DNA of 64,000 nucleotides from Desulfobacterales bacterium (lineage in GTDB: Bacteria; Desulfobacterota; Desulfobacteria; Desulfobacterales; UBA11574): assembly GCA_030145345.1 (NCBI GenBank), contig JAQYVT010000002.1:11095-75094 (forward strand), written 5' to 3'. The translations under genes were made by a program, and so were the position numbers. The notes beneath the pieces are model-generated. The model was given only the letters and a program-made list of their open reading frames with translations. It did not search any database and had not been told where the DNA came from. Positions 8,300 to 53,401 of the stretch are shown here, piece after piece. Numbering within the stretch: the first letter of the stretch is position 1; each line of letters begins with the position of its first letter.

Positions 8300-8491
8300 A
8301 ACTACCTAGTGTCCATCCACAATTGTTAAATGGGCACGGTGCGTTTCCAATTCATAAATGAGCATTTTTTGTTCGGATCAAGGCCGCACAAGGGTTTTCG
8401 GTGAGGCATACTCCCTGTATGCCGCAGCCGGAAACCCGCGGAGAACGCAGATCCGGGCAAAAAGGGCCATTTATGGATGGAAACTACCTAG
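8300..8491 (+). repeat. Family-A MITE-like element, copy 1 (short form)
   Basis: Imperfect terminal inverted repeats GTGTCCATCCACAATTG (8309-8325) and CATTTATGGATGGAAAC (8468-8484) match 14/17. Each is flanked by TA and by a direct AACTACCTAG. The element is about 85 percent identical to 52488-52770 outside an indel. Confidence 0.75.
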
Positions 8492-47700: not shown

Positions 47701-47880
47701 AACGGTGATTTGGACGAGATCCAGTTCAAAGTAAGGAAAAACTTCTTTCTTGATTAGGTAACCCGAAAAAAATCCTCCCACCAGAAGTACCAGCATAATC
47801 AGGTTGGCCGTTACGGGATGTGCGGTCATCCAGGCGATGACCCCTTTTTTTTCGGACTCTTTTTGCAGCGGGCTGTTCAT
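44764..47880 (-). CDS. RND efflux transporter, inner-membrane permease subunit
   Basis: 1038 aa with 12-TM AcrB/CzcA architecture, two large periplasmic loops and an N-terminal VFPYFELDLVQITVPYPGASPQEVE. Its start overlaps the adaptor-gene stop by 4 nt. Confidence 0.9.
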   Translation of the reverse strand: MNSPLQKESEKKGVIAWMTAHPVTANLIMLVLLVGGFFSGYLIKKEVFPYFELDLVQITVPYPGASPQEVEKGIILAIEEAVQGLEGVNEVLSSAREGVGTVTVEMIEGENLQKLGQDIQSEVDRITSFPEEAEEPRVVIVSRKRYVVSLALYGDQSERVLREYAEYLRDRLLQDSDITQVELVGIRNYEISVEIPQNALRAYNLTLEEVAQRIARTSVELPGGAVKTSGGDILVRVKERKDYGHEFGQIPIITSNDGTQVLLEDIADIEDGFEETDNAATFNGKSAVMVEVYRIGDQTPVSVSDAVKRTVAVVNQELPPGLTVVLRNDRSEIYRQRMGLLVRNGCLGLGLVFLLLALFLEIRLAFWVALGIPISFLGSLLFLPTVDVSINMVSMFAFIVTLGIVVDDAIVVGENIYYHHQCGDSWFNAAISGTREIAMPVTFSVMTNMIAFVPMFFISGIMGKVFKQIPVVVISVFAISLVECFWILPAHVGHQKRPHRGFFGWMHAWQQRFSEAFVRMVHNRYGPFLGLALRWRYVTMSLGIAILLITVGYVKSGRMGFELFPKIESDYAKVTATLPFGTAFQKTEKVQQILVRAAQEVVAENGGERLSEGIFARISDNQADVRIYLTPPDKRPMSTAKVTERWRERVGVIPGLESILFESDAGGPGRGPVISIELSHKDIGLLEKGAADVAEALGYYPNVKDIDDGFAPGKQQLDFQIKPEARSLGLRSKEVARQVRHAYYGAEALRQQRGRNEVKVMVRLPRNERISEYNLEEMILRTPAGNEIPLRSAVTVNRGRAYTDINRRDGRRIVTVEADVRPRSKADQVLASLKSETLSALQKEYPGLTIGFEGRQADRRESMQSLVRGLLAALVVIFAMLAIPLNSYIQPLIIMAAIPFGMVGAVIGHLIMGYSLSVLSMFGVVALSGVVVNDSLVLVDFANRKERSGMPRRDAIHQAGIHRFRPIILTTLTTFGGLSPMIFETSRQARFLIPMALSLGYGILFATLITLVLVPSFYLIVDDIKQLVRVESVPDVKV

Positions 47881-49166
47881 TCTTTAGGAACTCCTGTCCC
47901 TTGGGGATTTATCTTTGCAGGGGGCGCACGCTTTATTTCGGATTTCGACGCATCGACACGCAAATTCATACCTTCTATCGGTGCAGCCAAATCTGAGACG
48001 ATCAAGTGTTCACCGGTTTTCAGGGCGTCTTTTAAGAGAACGATCTCCGGGTCGCGCCAGATCGGCCGCACCTTCCGGATTTCCAATGTTTGATTTTCAC
48101 CGACCAGCCAGACACTCGAATGATCTTTCAATGCCGTGCGCGGAATTTCAAATACGCCGTCAAGTTTACGCCCTTGGATTTCTACCCGGACGTACTCGCC
48201 GATGATTAGGGGTGTGCGATCCTGGGTGGCAGCATTCAACCCCAGCGGATCGGCAACTTCCACGAGAATTCGGGCCATGCGTCCTTCGGTTGCCAGATCC
48301 CCCATCAGCCGGATGACCCGGCCGCTGCGTTCATGACCCTGGCCGTAAATGATCCGGGCTTTGGAACCCGGATCACCGGCTTGACTGGGCGTTTGGATCC
48401 ATTCAAGGCGATCCACCGGTATGGACACCTGAATTCTGTAAGTATCGGTTCCCACCAGTTCGGCCAGGGACTCCTGGGGCGTCACCTGAGACCCGAGATC
48501 CACGGACTTGGAACGCACCATGGCATTGAAAGGCGCCCTGATTTGGGTTCGCTCAAGATCGAGCATTGCCGTCTTAAGTTCGGCCTCGGCTGCTGTAAGA
48601 TCTGCCTTGACTTTATTTAGGTGGGGTTGGCGCAGCGCCAGTTCCTTCTCCATATCTTGGGCCGGTTTGCCCTCGTTTAACAGCTCCCATTCGCGCTTGG
48701 CCACCGCCTGATACCCCAACTCCAGCTTCAGGGCATACTCGGCATCGGTCACCGTACTCCGCCTGCGGGCCAGGGCCAGCTCGTAGTCCACCGGGTCGAT
48801 CTGGAGAACTTTTGTGTGTTTTTTTAAAAACCCGCCTTCCGTGAACTCGGGATGGATCTCTTCGACTTCTCCGGACACACGAGATTTCAGCAGTACTTCC
48901 CGGGCAGGAATAACGGTTCCCATTGCCGTTACAACAATCTGATAGTCGGAAAGTTTTACCGTTAGGACTTGAACCGTGGGACTCAATTTAACCGGGGGCC
49001 GCTTCTGGGTTCGGGGCGCACTGTTTTTCAGGTAAGATGCCCCACCCACACCGCCGGCGAGTATGAGCAGCGATAGGATAATCCTGACAATGGGTCGCCG
49101 CCTTCGGGCAGGGTTCGGCGATTCTTCCGGAAACTGATTGTTTTGCGTATCATCCACTATTTTCAT
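47877..49166 (-). CDS. RND efflux periplasmic adaptor (membrane-fusion protein, HlyD family)
   Basis: 429 aa with an N-terminal TM, a coiled-coil hairpin (LNKVKADLTAAEAELKTAMLDLERTQIRAPF) and beta-barrel domains. Confidence 0.85.
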   Translation of the reverse strand: MKIVDDTQNNQFPEESPNPARRRRPIVRIILSLLILAGGVGGASYLKNSAPRTQKRPPVKLSPTVQVLTVKLSDYQIVVTAMGTVIPAREVLLKSRVSGEVEEIHPEFTEGGFLKKHTKVLQIDPVDYELALARRRSTVTDAEYALKLELGYQAVAKREWELLNEGKPAQDMEKELALRQPHLNKVKADLTAAEAELKTAMLDLERTQIRAPFNAMVRSKSVDLGSQVTPQESLAELVGTDTYRIQVSIPVDRLEWIQTPSQAGDPGSKARIIYGQGHERSGRVIRLMGDLATEGRMARILVEVADPLGLNAATQDRTPLIIGEYVRVEIQGRKLDGVFEIPRTALKDHSSVWLVGENQTLEIRKVRPIWRDPEIVLLKDALKTGEHLIVSDLAAPIEGMNLRVDASKSEIKRAPPAKINPQGTGVPKE

Positions 49167-49301
49167 TCCTGTTTGATATGGGTCTCATATTACCGGTTAG
49201 GTTTAAACCCCAACCCTGCGAAATCCGGTCATGGGGATCGTTATCGTCTTGAAACCCATTTTGTCATGTTATTCATACAACCATAAGGCAAGCCTTGTTC
49301 C

Positions 49302-50699
49302 TTAAGGGGTCAGCGATTCCGTCCAGGTTCCGCCCAGGGCTCGATAGAGACCGATGCGTGCATTCAGAAGGTTGGCCCGCTGCCGGATTAAATTCCTCTC
49401 GAGCCCCTGAACCGCCAATAATTGGGTCAGTACCGGCAGGTAATCGGTAAGCCCGTTACGATAGCGAAGCCCCGCCTCCTCGAGGGCCCTGCGCGCTGCA
49501 GCCTCGACCTTTTCGAGCCCTCTGATGTGTTCCCGTTGCTTGGACTCGTTGACGAGCGAATTTTCGACTTCTTTTATGGCCGTTAAAACCGCTTGTCGGT
49601 ATGCAGACAAATTTTCATCCACAAGCGCCTGTCTGCGGTCGACTTCCGCTGCCCGGCGATTTCCATCGAATATCGGTGCCGTCAAATTGCCCGCCAGGCT
49701 GAGGATCCAGTTGTCGAAAAGCACGTCCATATCCCCTTGCCCGTATTGGGCTTGGGCAGTCAGGCGGATTGCCGGCAGACGATTTGCCCGGGCGGCGGCC
49801 ACTTGCCATTCTGCCGCCTGCAGACGCATTCCGGCCCTTCGCAAATCCGGACGTAATGAGAGGAGATCGCCGGGCAGTCCGGTTGCCGGGATTTCGGTCG
49901 GTTCAGGCAAACCGACCCGGCCGATTTTCAATTCAGCCTGTGGCGGTTTTCCCAGCAAAAGCGCCAGTTCATGTCTCAGCACCTGTTCTTCGGCCTCAAC
50001 CAAAGGAATTTCAGCCCGGATGTCTTCAACAACTTGTTTTTGTTGATACACATCAAGGGCCGACACCATAGACATTCGAAATCTGAGCTCAATAAGCTCC
50101 AGGTATGTCCGGTTGACTTGAAGCTGATGTTCCAAAAGCCGTTTTTGCATCTGCTGGGAAATAATGAATGTCCAGCGCCGGGCAACCTCGGCCGCCAGTG
50201 TCATGGCGGCCGTATTCACTTCCTCCCGGGCGGCGGTCACATCCAGCAAGGCGGCTTCCCGATCGGAACGGATACGTCCCCAGAGATCCAGTTCATAGCT
50301 GCTGATAAGCCCCAGGGAATAGTCATCGTTCGATTCGGTTTTCGGCGATCCGTTGTCTGATCTTCGGCGCTCATAAAAAGCACCGGCAGTGCCGGTCAGG
50401 TCCGGATAAAGTGCCGCACCGACCTGAACGGCCAATGACCGCGCTTGATTGAGGCGGGACCAGGCTTCTTTCAGGGTCAAATTGTCGGCCAGGGCTTCTT
50501 CGATCAGTCCGGTGAGTTCGGAATCATGAAATTCTTCCCACCACCGTCCCAACGGCTCGGTTTCCTTGGAATAAAGCGAAAAAGTTTCCGGAAGTTCACC
50601 GGCCGGCGACTGTCTTATCTGAGGTTTGAACGGATTGCAGGCTGTAAACAAAAGCAAGATGACCGTCAAACCGATAAATTCATTTACCCGATTCTTCAT
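49302..50699 (-). CDS. Outer-membrane efflux lipoprotein, NodT/TolC family
   Basis: 465 aa with lipobox LLFTAC and two OEP repeats (LTLKEAWSRLNQARS...; LRPDLRRAGMRLQAAEWQVAAARANRLP). Confidence 0.85.
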   Translation of the reverse strand: MKNRVNEFIGLTVILLLFTACNPFKPQIRQSPAGELPETFSLYSKETEPLGRWWEEFHDSELTGLIEEALADNLTLKEAWSRLNQARSLAVQVGAALYPDLTGTAGAFYERRRSDNGSPKTESNDDYSLGLISSYELDLWGRIRSDREAALLDVTAAREEVNTAAMTLAAEVARRWTFIISQQMQKRLLEHQLQVNRTYLELIELRFRMSMVSALDVYQQKQVVEDIRAEIPLVEAEEQVLRHELALLLGKPPQAELKIGRVGLPEPTEIPATGLPGDLLSLRPDLRRAGMRLQAAEWQVAAARANRLPAIRLTAQAQYGQGDMDVLFDNWILSLAGNLTAPIFDGNRRAAEVDRRQALVDENLSAYRQAVLTAIKEVENSLVNESKQREHIRGLEKVEAAARRALEEAGLRYRNGLTDYLPVLTQLLAVQGLERNLIRQRANLLNARIGLYRALGGTWTESLTP

Positions 50700-50842: not shown

Positions 50843-52165
50843 CTATTCGGATTGGCTTTCTTCCGATTTGATATAGTCATCGATTCCCTTTCCGAGTGTG
50901 TCGATCATCGTGTGAAAGCGCTCCTCATTCGGTTCTAAAAGGGTGACCCGAAAGCCCTGCAAGTTCGTGTTAAAGGAGGTCAGGGGAACCAAACAAATTC
51001 CAGTGGCAGCCAGCAAGTAATATACAAACCGTTTATCCGGATGTATCTGCGAATCGGAAGTCAGTGTTTCAACCAGTTCCGCAACGGATGGGTTGGAAAT
51101 GGGCAGGGTTTGCCGATGGTTCAGGAGGCCGTCTTCAAAAGTCACGCTCATATACAGCGCGCCGTTGGTCCGGTTTGCCAACACACCGGGGATATCTTTG
51201 AGCCGATCGTAGGCGATCTGTGAGAACCTTTCGTAACGCAGGCGACGTTTTTCCAGGTACCCCGGATATTCGGGGTGCTGGAGGATGTGCGGAAAGGCCT
51301 TCTGGGGCAGGGTTGTTGAACAGACCTCAACCATTTTGGCGTTGAGAATGCTCTTGATGTAGGTTTCAAACTGGGGTTTTCTTTGGGCATTGTACACTTC
51401 GATCCAGCCGCAGCGAGAACCGGGCCAGGGGAGTTCCTTGGAAATCCCCTTCATGGAAATAGCCGGAACTTCACCGATGACCGCAGCCAGCGGTTCGGTC
51501 TTCTGGCCGTTGAAAACCAGATTTTGATAAATCTCATCGGCAATGATAAAAAGATCAAATTCTGACGCAATATCAACAATTTCCCGGAGCAGATCTTCCG
51601 GATAAACAGCACCGGTCGGATTATCGGGGTTGATCAGTAAAATACCGGCCACGGCCGGATTATACTTGACCCGTCGCCGCAGTTCGTGGACGTCCGGAAA
51701 CCAGTGGTTATGGGGATCGAGGGGATAAGAGACCGGCGGCAGACCGGCGTGAGCTGCTTCGCATGCAGAATGCGTCGTATACGTGGGTGACGGCGTTATC
51801 ACACGGGCGGTACGGCGTAAAAATCCATAAGTTTTGGTAATGGCGTCTCCGAGACCGTTAAAAAAAATGATGTCGTCCGGGGTGATGCGGCAATGGCCGT
51901 TGCCGTTGTTCATGGACACCAGAAACTCGCGTGTTTCGAGCAGTCCTTGGGTGGGACAGTAACCGTAGCTATCGTCTTCCATAACCAGCCGGGAAACAAT
52001 CTTTTTCATCCAATCGGGGATCTTTTCACCTTTTGCCACAGGATCGCCGATATTTTCCAGATAGACGGGAACTCCCAGTTCTTGGAGTTTATCGGCGACC
52101 CGCACGATATTTCTGATTTCATAATTCAGTTCTTCTGCGCCAATGTGTACAATTCCTGTCCGCAT
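50843..52165 (-). CDS. Class I PLP aminotransferase, AlaA-like (alanine/glutamate-pyruvate transaminase type)
   Basis: 440 aa. From memory it is collinear with E. coli AlaA: YEIRNIV...LENIGDP, YGYCPTQGLLETRE, WFPDVHELR, LLINPDNPTGAVY, ADEIYQNLVF and the Lys motif SKELPWPGSRCGW. A perfect AAGGAGG SD lies 10 nt upstream of the ATG. Confidence 0.8.
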   Translation of the reverse strand: MRTGIVHIGAEELNYEIRNIVRVADKLQELGVPVYLENIGDPVAKGEKIPDWMKKIVSRLVMEDDSYGYCPTQGLLETREFLVSMNNGNGHCRITPDDIIFFNGLGDAITKTYGFLRRTARVITPSPTYTTHSACEAAHAGLPPVSYPLDPHNHWFPDVHELRRRVKYNPAVAGILLINPDNPTGAVYPEDLLREIVDIASEFDLFIIADEIYQNLVFNGQKTEPLAAVIGEVPAISMKGISKELPWPGSRCGWIEVYNAQRKPQFETYIKSILNAKMVEVCSTTLPQKAFPHILQHPEYPGYLEKRRLRYERFSQIAYDRLKDIPGVLANRTNGALYMSVTFEDGLLNHRQTLPISNPSVAELVETLTSDSQIHPDKRFVYYLLAATGICLVPLTSFNTNLQGFRVTLLEPNEERFHTMIDTLGKGIDDYIKSEESQSE

Positions 52166-52190
52166 GAGAGATAATCCTCCTTATTCGTCA

Positions 52191-52223
52191 AATAAAAAGG
52201 GCTGCTGGATTACGTTGCAGCCC
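52191..52223 (-). terminator. Intrinsic terminator T2, immediately upstream of the aminotransferase SD
   Basis: On the minus strand: GGGCUGC, an 11-nt loop, GCAGCCC, then UUUUUAUUU. Confidence 0.65.
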
Positions 52224-52231
52224 TTAAAACT

Positions 52232-52261
52232 AAAAAAGGCTGCGGTCGATTGCCTACAGCC
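52232..52261 (-). terminator. Intrinsic terminator T1
   Basis: On the minus strand: GGCUGU(A)GG, a 7-nt loop, CCGCAGCC, then UUUUUU. Confidence 0.6.
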
Positions 52262-52286
52262 CCGGTTTTTTTATAGGGAAATCAGA

Positions 52287-52394
52287 TCATTTGCTCCCCT
52301 CCAGGACCGCAGGCCGACCGGCAGCGGCTGCCGCAGCAGCGCTGGTCGCTTGGCATGCATTTTGGACCCTGGAAATGGAAGTTTGCATCATCAT
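52287..52394 (-). CDS. Candidate poly-alanine leader peptide (35 aa)
   Basis: Not in the track. An AAAGGAAAT SD precedes ATGATGATG. The translation is MMMQTSISRVQNACQATSAAAAAAAGRPAVLEGSK, with seven consecutive Ala codons (GCT GCT GCG GCA GCC GCT GCC). The stop lies 25 nt upstream of terminator T1. Confidence 0.4.
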   Translation of the reverse strand: MMMQTSISRVQNACQATSAAAAAAAGRPAVLEGSK

Positions 52395-52418
52395 GGATTT
52401 CCTTTCATTCTGGATGAG

Positions 52419-52448
52419 CCTATACCATGTCTTTGGGTATATGTCACG
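52419..52448 (-). promoter_or_regulatory. Candidate sigma-70-type promoter for the leader transcript
   Basis: On the minus strand GTGACA (52448-52443), an 18-nt spacer, then TATAGG (52424-52419). This is hexamer matching by eye only. Confidence 0.3.
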
Positions 52449-52487
52449 AATTTTTTTCGCTCCAAAAAATTCTTAGGATGAACTCCG

Positions 52488-52770
52488 AACTAAACAGTGC
52501 CCAGCCACAATTGTAAAATGGGCACAGTGCGTTTCCTATTCATAAATGAGCATCTTTTGTCCGGATCAAGGCCGCCCCAGTTAAATATGCTTCGCCCCGA
52601 TGAAATCGGCGTTGCATTTCATTGGGCAAGCATTTCACGGGGCAGGCACAAGGGTTTTCAGTCCCCGCAAAGCGGTACAGGAAGGCAACCTTTCTGTACG
52701 CCGCAGCCGGAAACCCGCGGAGAACGCAGATCCGGGCAAAAAGGGCCATTTATGGATGGAAACTAAATAG
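52488..52770 (+). repeat. Family-A MITE-like element, copy 2 (long form)
   Basis: It has the same termini as copy 1: GTGCCCAGCCACAATTG on the left and CATTTATGGATGGAAAC-TA on the right. It is flanked by AACTAAACAG / AACTAAATAG and carries an extra ~85-bp hairpin module. The right terminus overlaps the LysE-family stop codon. Confidence 0.75.
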
Positions 52771-53401
52771 CCTTTCCGATAACCCCAAACAGTTCCAAAC
52801 TGTCTTTAACAAAAAGAACCGCAAACACCAGAAGTATGATCCCCAACAATCTGATGGTGTAAACGTAATTTCTGCTTTTCAGAAAGAACCGGGATTTTCC
52901 GACCACTACCGCCACCGACACTTTAGAACCCACAAGGAATACATAAAAACCCAGTATAAAAGCAGATGCCGGGAAAATACCGATGTGGAGCGCTTTGAGC
53001 ACCAGGGGCGCCCCAATGGTAAACCAGAACAAATAGGGCGCCGGGTTCAAAAAATTTGCGATGACACCTTTTCTGATCGATTGGGGCTTTGCTTGCGCCA
53101 CATCGATATCGACACCCTTGAAGGATATACCTTCGTAACCCAGATAGACCAGAAATGCGCTGCCCAGTAAAGAAACCACTCCAAGTACCGGCAACATGTC
53201 GGATAGCCGGGAAAGAACGAGTATCGTAATCATTACAATTGGGAGATCTGTCAGGATCGGTGCAATGGAAACTTTAATCCCTTCCTTTACATCGTGTTTT
53301 AGTGTTTCGGAAATGACCAATGTCAGCAAAGGTCCCGGGGACAGCCCGGCGCTGAGGCCAAAAACAACTCCCGAAAACAGGAAGGAAAATCCGAGTGCCA
53401 T
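52763..53401 (-). CDS. LysE/RhtB-family amino-acid exporter
   Basis: About 212 aa from ATG 53401 (MALGFSFLFSGVVFGLSAGLSPGPLLTLVISE). It has six TM helices and NFLNPAPYLFW, the typical LysE-family signature. The tracked upstream start at 53473 looks non-coding. Confidence 0.8.
   Translation of the reverse strand: MALGFSFLFSGVVFGLSAGLSPGPLLTLVISETLKHDVKEGIKVSIAPILTDLPIVMITILVLSRLSDMLPVLGVVSLLGSAFLVYLGYEGISFKGVDIDVAQAKPQSIRKGVIANFLNPAPYLFWFTIGAPLVLKALHIGIFPASAFILGFYVFLVGSKVSVAVVVGKSRFFLKSRNYVYTIRLLGIILLVFAVLFVKDSLELFGVIGKAI

Follow-up and report, generated by a model that had tools for sequence, protein, structure and literature searches.

Directly upstream of the gene for an AlaA-like aminotransferase, in the stretch of DNA analyzed here (64,000 nucleotides; hereafter, the window), we identified an element that, as judged from its sequence, is very probably a ribosome-mediated leader-peptide attenuator tying the expression of an alanine-forming aminotransferase to how much charged tRNA-Ala is available. 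The region presents, in order on the minus strand, a promoter, a Shine-Dalgarno sequence (SD), a 35-codon open reading frame (ORF), two hairpin/U-tract terminators, and the SD and ATG of the aminotransferase gene. An earlier note on this DNA had listed these elements, including an ORF with 10 Ala codons, seven of them consecutive, and the AAGGAGG SD, and had read them as ribosome-mediated attenuation. All are present, and the comparison of orthologous loci supports this reading: the short Ala-rich ORF and the terminator are kept in related Desulfobacterota, and the Ala run shows synonymous variation and in-frame changes of length.

The leader promoter comprises a -35-like hexamer, GTGACA (52442-52447, minus strand, as all features described here), read from the sequence, and an extended -10 element, TGgTATAGG (52419-52427; TATAGG at 52424-52419, TG at 52427-52426). 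The -35 is kept in close relatives as GTGACA (ATGACA in D. toluolica), 17 nt upstream of the -10. Both hexamers had been named in the earlier note, with a spacer of 18 nt; the hexamers stand, the spacer is 17 nt, and the TG of an extended -10 is present in addition. A standard promoter scan missed this promoter, whose -10 is without the final T, and promoter conservation was used instead: the pattern TGnTAnAnn occurs at equal spacing in L001, L002 and L005, and in the metagenome loci L095, L086, L097, L103, L084 and L090. Transcription of the leader would start near position 52412, ~18 nt upstream of the leader ATG. The leader ORF (52287-52394; 35 codons plus UGA, MMMQTSISRVQNACQATSAAAAAAAGRPAVLEGSK) has its own SD, AAAGGAAA (52398-52405, read from the sequence), so that a short ORF with an SD and a start codon of its own lies between the promoter and the gene; its translation is predicted. 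The run of seven consecutive Ala codons, GCU GCU GCG GCA GCC GCU GCC, occupies positions 52320-52340.

The gene downstream (50843-52165, ATG at 52165) encodes a PLP-dependent aminotransferase of 440 aa, recognized as AlaA-like by family and structure matches. It matches NCBIfam PRK06855 (714.6 bits), a family without substrate assignment, and its nearest solved structure is the E. coli glutamate-pyruvate aminotransferase AlaA (4cvq, E = 9.5e-43). Homologues are named automatically “alanine-synthesizing transaminase” or “alanine transaminase”. Homology and these automated names together suggest that the enzyme is an alanine-type aminotransferase.

The Ala run behaves as a coding sequence. Within the run, alignment A1 is nearly invariant at codon positions 1 and 2, with an entropy of 1.3-2.0 bits at position 3, a pattern that gives the conservation a 3-nt periodicity. 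Among relatives the run is 4 to 10 codons long, its length changing by in-frame (3n) indels, and all four GCN codons are in use across the leaders (114, 107, 105 and 77 times). The codons of the presumably sensed amino acid are thus clustered, and conserved as codons and not as nucleotides. Ala accounts for 28.7% of the 1406 leader codons, and apart from the run no coding feature of the peptide is conserved across the two clades, whose terminators differ in sequence. A start codon is found in 38 of 38 leaders, and a purine-rich SD of at least 4 nt precedes the chosen start in 36 of them. In the Ala frame, a stop codon falls at most 60 nt upstream of the first terminator in all 38 loci, as compared with 19-20 of the 38 in the other two frames. 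The earlier note had cautioned that GC-rich Ala runs arise easily by chance. The caveat does not hold here: neither strand of the window (64 kb, 47% GC) has another run of at least five GCN codons, the leader region folds with z = -3.9, and the arrangement is conserved.

Two predicted intrinsic terminators lie between the leader and the structural gene. Terminator 1 (T1, 52232-52263) consists of a GGGGCUGUAGG...CCGCAGCC stem followed by UUUUUU, and terminator 2 (T2, 52190-52225) of a AAGGGCUGC...GCAGCCCUU stem followed by UUUUUAUUU; in folds of the window their energies are -12.5 and -15.5 kcal/mol, respectively. A standard terminator scan missed both, since it allows loops of up to 8 nt and theirs measured 12 and 11 nt as scanned; our own scan, together with folds, recovered the two stem-loop/U-tract terminators that the earlier note had described. 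The T1 helix is 91.8% paired (alignment A1) and the T2 helix 98.4%; taken together they are 94.6% paired across 24 loci, with predicted G+C-rich stems and U-tracts. The T1 3’ arm and the T2 5’ arm are complementary, and the helix that they can form is 97.8% paired across loci; a single switch could thereby turn off both terminators. Only ~25 nt separate T2 from the ATG in the window, including the aminotransferase SD (AAGGAGG, 52176-52182, read from the sequence), and there is therefore no room for a separate promoter.

T1 competes with an antiterminator. The 5’ strand of the latter, region 2 (GCCUGCGGUCCUGG, 52301-52314, codons Pro-Ala-Val-Leu-Glu), lies just 3’ of the Ala run and was absent from the account of the earlier note; its 3’ strand, region 3 (CCGGGGCUGUAGGC, 52252-52265), overlaps the 5’ arm of T1. 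Positions 52314-52301 pair with 52265-52252 in the MFE folds of the window, and the antiterminator was also recovered by RNAalifold. Its helix is 97.1% paired across 24 sequences, versus 36-48% when slid; slid controls for the antiterminator, T1 and T2, and T1 3’ arm/T2 5’ arm helices range from 36 to 66% paired. True compensatory changes are few in all of these helices, since there is high conservation on both strands. In region 2, conservation extends to all three codon positions. In the window and in group 1, it begins 3-11 nt 3’ of the Ala core and is complete before the stop codon. The antiterminator is capped by an apical hairpin (52275-52300 in the folds), whose loop holds the leader stop UGA (52289-52287). 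An apical hairpin of varying sequence is predicted in nearly all 24 loci, with the stop codon usually in or beside the loop, and is better than shuffles at |z| ~2 or more in only about two-thirds of them.

In group 1, the cognate pairing of region 2 with the terminator is stronger than after swapping between clades (-21.7 versus -17.0 kcal/mol, p = 5e-4). The terminator of Desulfuromonadales differs (GGCCAUGGGC...CCAUGGCC), and most of these loci have a matching strand between the Ala run and the stop codon; in the cross-clade swap test, their antiterminator pairing was not significantly above swapped controls. An antiterminator that excludes the terminator is thus found in the window and in group 1, with weaker evidence for Desulfuromonadales. 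Folding the 5’ part of the window leader also yielded a candidate region 1 (CCAGGGUCC...GCAUGCC, 52353-52372), able to pair with region 2 while region 3 is still to be transcribed. RNAalifold found no conserved 1:2 helix across the alignment, and we regard region 1 as tentative.

We also folded the leader with a ribosome in place. In the window, equilibrium folding with a ribosome mask has the predicted probability of T1 jump from 0 to 0.9 midway through the Ala run. This simulation was informative for the window and for L012, L020, L025 and L032; in most loci, T1 wins at equilibrium at any ribosome position, so that the switch would have to be kinetic, as in trp. More informative, although still an equilibrium calculation, was the pairing of region 3 in the transcript folded ahead of the synthesis of region 4: for group 1, region 3 is ~90% paired upstream with the ribosome at or before the Ala run, and less once the ribosome is past it. 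A further result counts against the model: a ribosome with a 27-nt footprint at the stop codon of the window leader leaves most of region 2 uncovered.

Across Desulfobacterota, we found an Ala-rich leader ORF and a terminator upstream of the orthologous aminotransferase gene in 38 of 80 genomes. In these loci (63-94% protein identity), the ORF follows an SD, spans 28-57 codons with 7-15 Ala, and has a terminator downstream; the carriers belong to Desulfobacterales, Syntrophobacteria, Desulfatiglandales and Desulfuromonadales. Desulfobacula toluolica Tol2, a cultured species, carries the element in full at about 900.25-900.47 kb of FO203503.1, beside a divergent upstream gene. We did not find the element at about half of the 80 orthologous loci, including L004, L006 and L007 (80% identity) and all of the Desulfobulbia-type loci. 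A scan of metagenomes with the antiterminator pattern gave 37 matches, 31 of them directly upstream of the same aminotransferase; the others comprised four with too little downstream contig, one chance match and one degraded locus. No second target gene appeared among these 37 matches. The chance match, L081, lies within a GC-rich coding region.

We propose that the element would work as follows. Transcription would begin at the conserved extended -10 promoter, and a ribosome would then translate the 35-codon leader. With Ala-tRNA plentiful, it would pass the seven Ala codons and region 2 toward the stop codon; once the ribosome is past region 2, region 3 would pair with region 4, T1 would form and transcription would stop, with T2 as a backstop. 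With Ala-tRNA scarce, the ribosome would stall in the Ala run, just 5’ of region 2, allowing regions 2 and 3 to form the 14-bp antiterminator with its small hairpin cap, which would block T1. The freed 3’ arm of T1 could then pair with the 5’ arm of T2, turning T2 off as well. With both terminators off, RNA polymerase would enter the aminotransferase gene, presumably leading to more alanine synthesis.

The Ala run could also be given other roles. The earlier note had taken the run itself as the strand that competes with the terminators, with GCUGCGG pairing with CCGCAGC and GCAGCC with GGCUGY. These complementarities exist, but the run is most likely not the operative pairing strand, because a stalled ribosome would cover it; we rejected it as the main antiterminator also in view of the better conserved partner, a strand of 13-14 nt just downstream. 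The same complementarity of the run to the terminator arms would allow an inverse, catabolic logic, in which the run pairs with these arms, a stall favours termination, and plentiful alanine induces the enzyme. Transaminases are reversible, and in L001 and L023 the best partner of the T1 5’ arm does fall within the run. We nevertheless consider the inverse logic very unlikely, given that in 19 of 21 correctly tested group-1 loci (at L026 and L027, the hairpin of T1 3’ arm and T2 5’ arm had been mistaken for the first terminator by the automated scan) the strongest partner of this arm is the strand 3-11 nt 3’ of the run. Moreover, region 2 is conserved as nucleotides where the run varies at third positions, and the geometry is that of the biosynthetic trp/his layout. 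The proposed mechanism would answer any stall 5’ of region 2, and the whiB7 uORF does answer many amino acids and antibiotics (PMC10274678); the leader may accordingly be imagined as a general sensor of translation stress, like whiB7 and erm leaders, in which any slowing leads to read-through and the Ala run is incidental or structural. This we hold to be unlikely: the run is the sole peptide feature conserved across two clades with differing terminators, the high share of Ala among the leader codons points the same way, and in all informative cases the gene under control is, by homology, a transaminase of the alanine type.

Two further explanations would detach the peptide, or the whole leader, from control of the aminotransferase. 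If region 2, T1 and T2, which are conserved as RNA, belonged to an RNA-only cis-regulator (a riboswitch, or a protein- or tRNA-binding leader), the ORF could be a by-product of GC-rich helices, and poly-Ala is indeed also read on the opposite strand. Such a by-product would hardly account for a run that is 3-nt periodic with indels in frame, for a conserved SD and start codon, or for a stop constrained to just before T1 in the Ala frame only. RNAalifold showed no conserved aptamer-like fold 5’ of region 2, and a scan of positions 51900-53000 against Rfam 15 (E up to 10) gave only chance-level matches and no T-box; on this basis we rejected the known leaders, T-boxes and riboswitches, and we regard an RNA-only regulator as extremely unlikely. 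The leader could also be an independent unit, either a small-protein or sRNA gene or, as the earlier note had allowed, hairpins that only end the upstream LysE-like gene. In six loci, T2 and the aminotransferase gene are 160-280 nt apart, which could accommodate a second promoter, and the element is dispensable in many orthologous loci. Yet the linkage to the aminotransferase is kept where the upstream neighbour differs or is even divergent, as in most loci, and in the window a ~265-nt repeat insertion parts the stop of the LysE-like gene from the leader promoter; for these reasons we rejected the hairpins as terminators of that gene. The short distance from T2 to the ATG in the window, and a conserved antiterminator that would have no role in a simple terminator, likewise speak against an independent unit, which we find scarcely credible.

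Leader-peptide attenuation is textbook knowledge for Trp, His, Leu, Thr, Ile/Val and Phe; alanine is not listed. The element that we interpret as an alanine attenuator resembles the his leader (hisL) of Enterobacteria: both have a short ORF with seven consecutive codons of the (here presumably) sensed amino acid, and alternative hairpins in series, every pairing of which would move by one register upon a stall, with an intrinsic terminator at the end. The his genes make the sensed amino acid, and the aminotransferase, as judged by homology, would do likewise. In contrast to hisL, which senses His and controls a pathway operon through one terminator, the element would sense Ala and control a single transaminase gene through two tandem terminators with near-identical stems. 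It also has no conserved first (1:2 or A:B) helix that we could find, no sequence similarity to hisL and no Rfam match. With the trp leader (trpL) it shares a 2:3 antiterminator opposed to a 3:4 terminator, between which the position of the ribosome would decide here as it does there, and a terminator that is thermodynamically stronger than the antiterminator. Region 2 lies within the coding region, 5’ of the stop codon, and not 3’ of it as in trpL, and there are seven regulatory codons as compared with two. T-box riboswitches, such as those of Firmicutes alaS leaders, sense tRNA charging and control an intrinsic terminator before an amino-acid-related gene, as the element presumably does; they bind uncharged tRNA directly and need no translation, whereas the element bears a coding signature and no T-box match.

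The nearest published parallel is the mycobacterial whiB7 uORF, which controls a terminator/antiterminator and is specifically enriched in Ala (25-40%), within a circuit that raises the alanine aminotransferase aspC upon alanine starvation (Poulton et al., PMC10274678). The target of the whiB7 leader is a transcription factor, which in turn regulates aspC and resistance genes in trans (PMC10274678). The earlier note was not aware of an alanine leader peptide; the whiB7 uORF is a leader tuned to alanine (PMC10274678), although it does not control the enzyme gene directly. The whiB7 uORF is also longer, more diverse and responsive to many amino acids and antibiotics, as opposed to the tight homopolymeric Ala run reported here, and works in mycobacteria through its trans factor, whereas the Desulfobacterota element stands in cis to the aminotransferase gene. 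The gene downstream is the aminotransferase, and not a regulator of the whiB7 type, in the window, in the 38 genome loci and in the 31 metagenome loci. In the searchable literature, which excludes subscription-only papers, we found no published description of the element, and only the whiB7 uORF as an “Ala leader”.

Our data suggest that this is probably the first dedicated alanine-specific leader-peptide attenuator, widespread in Desulfobacterota and acting in cis on the main alanine-synthesizing transaminase gene, with two look-alike terminators co-switched by a one-register shift (2:3 plus 4:5 versus 3:4 plus 5:6). The control of bacterial alanine synthesis is poorly understood. If confirmed, our proposal would add alanine to the amino acids sensed through ribosome stalling, would supply regulatory evidence for PRK06855-type aminotransferases as the source of alanine in many sulfate- and metal-reducing bacteria, and would provide a compact, portable genetic switch responsive to alanine; the tandem terminators with interchangeable arms would be a natural example of one antiterminator silencing two terminators. 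Since one carrier, Desulfobacula toluolica Tol2, is cultured and fully sequenced, the prediction is directly testable. If it is true, these anaerobes monitor alanine via the charging of tRNA-Ala, and the uncharacterized PRK06855 family would gain a physiological role.

Read on the minus strand, the region upstream of the aminotransferase gene carries, in this order, a -35-like hexamer GTGACA (52447-52442), an extended -10 element TGgTATAGG (52427-52419), the Shine-Dalgarno (SD) sequence AAAGGAAA (52405-52398) of a leader ORF of 35 codons (52394-52287; peptide MMMQTSISRVQNACQATSAAAAAAAGRPAVLEGSK) with seven consecutive Ala codons (52340-52320), two terminators, T1 (52263-52232; hairpin plus U6, -12.5 kcal/mol) and T2 (52225-52190; hairpin plus U5AU3, -15.5 kcal/mol), and the SD AAGGAGG (52182-52176) and start ATG (52165) of the aminotransferase (440 aa). 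The promoter elements were read from the sequence; their spacer, counted as 18 nt in an earlier note on this DNA, is 17 nt, and close relatives keep GTGACA, 17 nt and TGnTAnAnn. Both terminators were missed by a standard scan because their loops exceed its limit, and were recovered by a purpose-made scan. The leader region folds more stably than 200 of 200 shuffles (z = -3.9), and an Rfam scan of it matched no family. The Ala run is the only run of at least five GCN codons on either strand of the window, whose G+C content is 47%; the caution that such runs arise easily by chance is thus inapplicable here.

The aminotransferase scores 714.6 bits against NCBIfam PRK06855, a family that carries no substrate assignment. 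Among solved structures the nearest is that of AlaA, the glutamate-pyruvate aminotransferase of E. coli (4cvq, E = 9.5e-43), and homologues are named “alanine-synthesizing transaminase” or “alanine transaminase” in the sources. Directly 3’ of the gene lie two long minus-strand ORFs (47877-50699), one of 465 aa (49302-50699) and one of 429 aa (47877-49166), whose sequences suggest an outer-membrane efflux protein and a membrane-fusion (HlyD-like) protein.

Scanning genomes with the aminotransferase as query gave 80 orthologous loci (63-94% identity), almost all of which bear Desulfobacterota or deltaproteobacterial labels. In 38 of them, an intrinsic terminator is preceded by an ORF of 28-57 codons that has an SD before it and includes 7-15 Ala codons. 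Group 1 (23 loci; Desulfobacterales, Syntrophobacteria, Desulfatiglandales) has the peptide pattern ...RAISAAAAAAAGQPVVLxG and two terminators with near-identical stems, AGGGCUGCGGGC...CCGCAGCCCUUUU and then AGGGCUGC...GCAGCCCUUUUU. Group 2 (15 loci, mostly Desulfuromonadales) has the pattern ...AARASSAAAAAAAAM... and a single terminator of a sequence unlike that of group 1, AGGCCAUGGGC...GUCCAUGGCCUUUUU. At the other 42 loci, including every Desulfobulbia-type locus and three at 80% identity, ORF and terminator were both absent or the upstream sequence was too short to judge. Two loci look like decayed copies: L008, an exception among these 42, has a single GGGCUGC...GCAGCCC terminator in its upstream 65 nt and no leader ORF, and L093 (1283-1740) has lost most of the Ala run in frame, its aminotransferase carrying a large internal deletion. 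L080 (2775-2940), with a 63%-identical aminotransferase on a 1.76-Mb contig labelled as a Pedobacter sp. MAG, has a Desulfuromonadales-type terminator and a weakly Ala-enriched leader (MTYHWDPLPVPAEAARAMGTAAKNRREARCLAV); possible explanations are a wrongly labelled bin, transfer of the gene, or decay of the element. In six loci (L003, L009, L010, L011, L015 and L019), T2 and the aminotransferase ATG are 160-280 nt apart; the DNA in between is non-coding and partly AT-rich or palindromic, and may represent an inserted element or a second promoter.

In an alignment of 24 leaders, conservation along the Ala run strictly follows a 3-nt period: the first and second codon positions hardly vary (entropy 0-0.4 bit at most run codons), whereas the third mostly reaches 1.3-2.0 bits. 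The leaders draw on all four Ala codons (GCA 114, GCC 107, GCG 105, GCU 77), and Ala accounts for 28.7% of 1406 leader codons. Gaps within the ORF measure 3 or 6 nt, the run spans 4-10 codons across loci, and the peptide outside it is poorly conserved. The Ala frame reaches a stop no more than 60 nt before T1 at all 38 loci, as against 19-20 of 38 for the other two frames. All three codon positions are conserved in the 13-14 nt after the run (GCCUGYGGUCCUG, “PxVL” when translated), where the only changes are between C and U and preserve pairing; so far as the peptide is conserved here, the constraint is on the RNA. Just 5’ of the run (52341-52352; L034-L077 leaders), both clades share C(G/A)AGCnA... 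(...GCA CGA GCU AGC AGC, then GCN GCN...; “A-R/Q-A-x-S/N” when translated). Its Arg codon is almost always CGA, with CAA in the window. The pairings tried leave this motif unexplained; a role as a pause element or slow codon is conceivable.

The antiterminator pairs region 2 (52314-52301), the conserved strand that follows the Ala run, with region 3 (52265-52252), which overlaps the T1 5’ arm. This pairing is present in minimum free energy folds of the window RNA, and RNAalifold recovers it even with the T1 3’ arm included; its helix is 97.1% paired in the alignment, against 36-48% in slid controls. The two strands enclose a small apical hairpin of constant position and lineage-specific sequence, with the leader stop codon usually in or adjoining its loop and an A-rich linker after it. 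The T1 and T2 helices are 94.6% paired. Since T1 and T2 have their stems in common, the T1 3’ arm (region 4) can also pair with the T2 5’ arm (region 5), and this helix is 97.8% paired. The four supported pairings therefore suggest a register shift, in which 3:4 and 5:6 (region 6 being the T2 3’ arm) would give termination, and 2:3 and 4:5 read-through. Compensatory double changes are few, since both strands are so conserved, and the structural evidence is thus mainly conserved complementarity and the change of terminator and partner between clades. When partners were swapped across clades, cognate pairing was stronger in group 1 (-21.7 versus -17.0 kcal/mol, p = 5e-4) and no better than swaps in group 2, most loci of which have a mimic of the terminator 3’ arm between Ala run and stop codon (e.g., ACGCCCGUCGCCUU or UUGUCCAUUGCCUUGA). 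No conserved 1:2 helix was found; in the window RNA alone, 52372-52353 (candidate region 1) can pair with region 2.

Ribosome position was simulated by masking a 27-nt footprint at every codon before folding. In the window, T1 is predicted with a probability of about 0 as long as the A site has not moved past the fourth Ala codon, and of about 0.9 from the fifth through the last sense codon. At most other loci T1 dominates thermodynamically whatever the ribosome state, so the choice would have to be kinetic, as in the trp attenuator. In group 1 transcripts ending before region 4, region 3 is about 90% paired upstream as long as the ribosome has come no further than the Ala run, and this share falls once it has passed. 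These simulations are consistent with attenuation and do not prove it.

The gene upstream of the element varies from locus to locus and is divergent in some; the LysE-like gene is found there only in the window and L001. In the window, about 265 nt (52497-52762) separate the end of this gene from the leader promoter. This stretch is missing at the 94%-identical locus L001 and partly repeated at 8300-8486 (88-94% identity), and is apparently a small MITE-like insertion. Searching metagenomes for the antiterminator pattern yielded 37 matches: 31 immediately 5’ of this aminotransferase, four on contigs ending too early to judge, one by chance in a GC-rich coding region and one at a degraded locus. 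The alternatives are that the element is a switch of inverse logic, a sensor of translation stress in general, an element acting purely as RNA, or else a small gene of its own or the terminator of the gene upstream; even taken together, we consider these unlikely.

The feature is genuine and conserved and makes mechanistic sense; very probably it is a classic leader-peptide attenuator in which alanine is sensed and an alanine-forming transaminase regulated. The earlier note’s attenuator reading is thus supported, except that the operative antiterminator strand is most likely region 2 and not the Ala run, and that an alanine-tuned leader was already known: the Ala-enriched uORF of mycobacterial whiB7, which ultimately induces the alanine aminotransferase AspC (PMC10274678). 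That uORF acts through a transcription factor and responds broadly, whereas the present element lies directly upstream of its aminotransferase. Literature searches outside subscription-only papers turned up no account of a poly-Ala leader immediately 5’ of an aminotransferase gene, nor of any in Desulfobacterota. The cultured Desulfobacula toluolica Tol2, whose genome is complete, carries the full element (L118 1283-1470; FO203503.1, about 900.25-900.47 kb), with leader MINDLNSSIFIAYCAAAAAAAEWPAVLEGI, seven Ala codons, antiterminator, T1 and T2, next to a divergent LMW phosphatase gene upstream, and offers a ready experimental system. The kind of regulator is well known; its amino-acid specificity and its target would be new, with a modest architectural twist in the tandem terminator pair, whose two members would be switched together.
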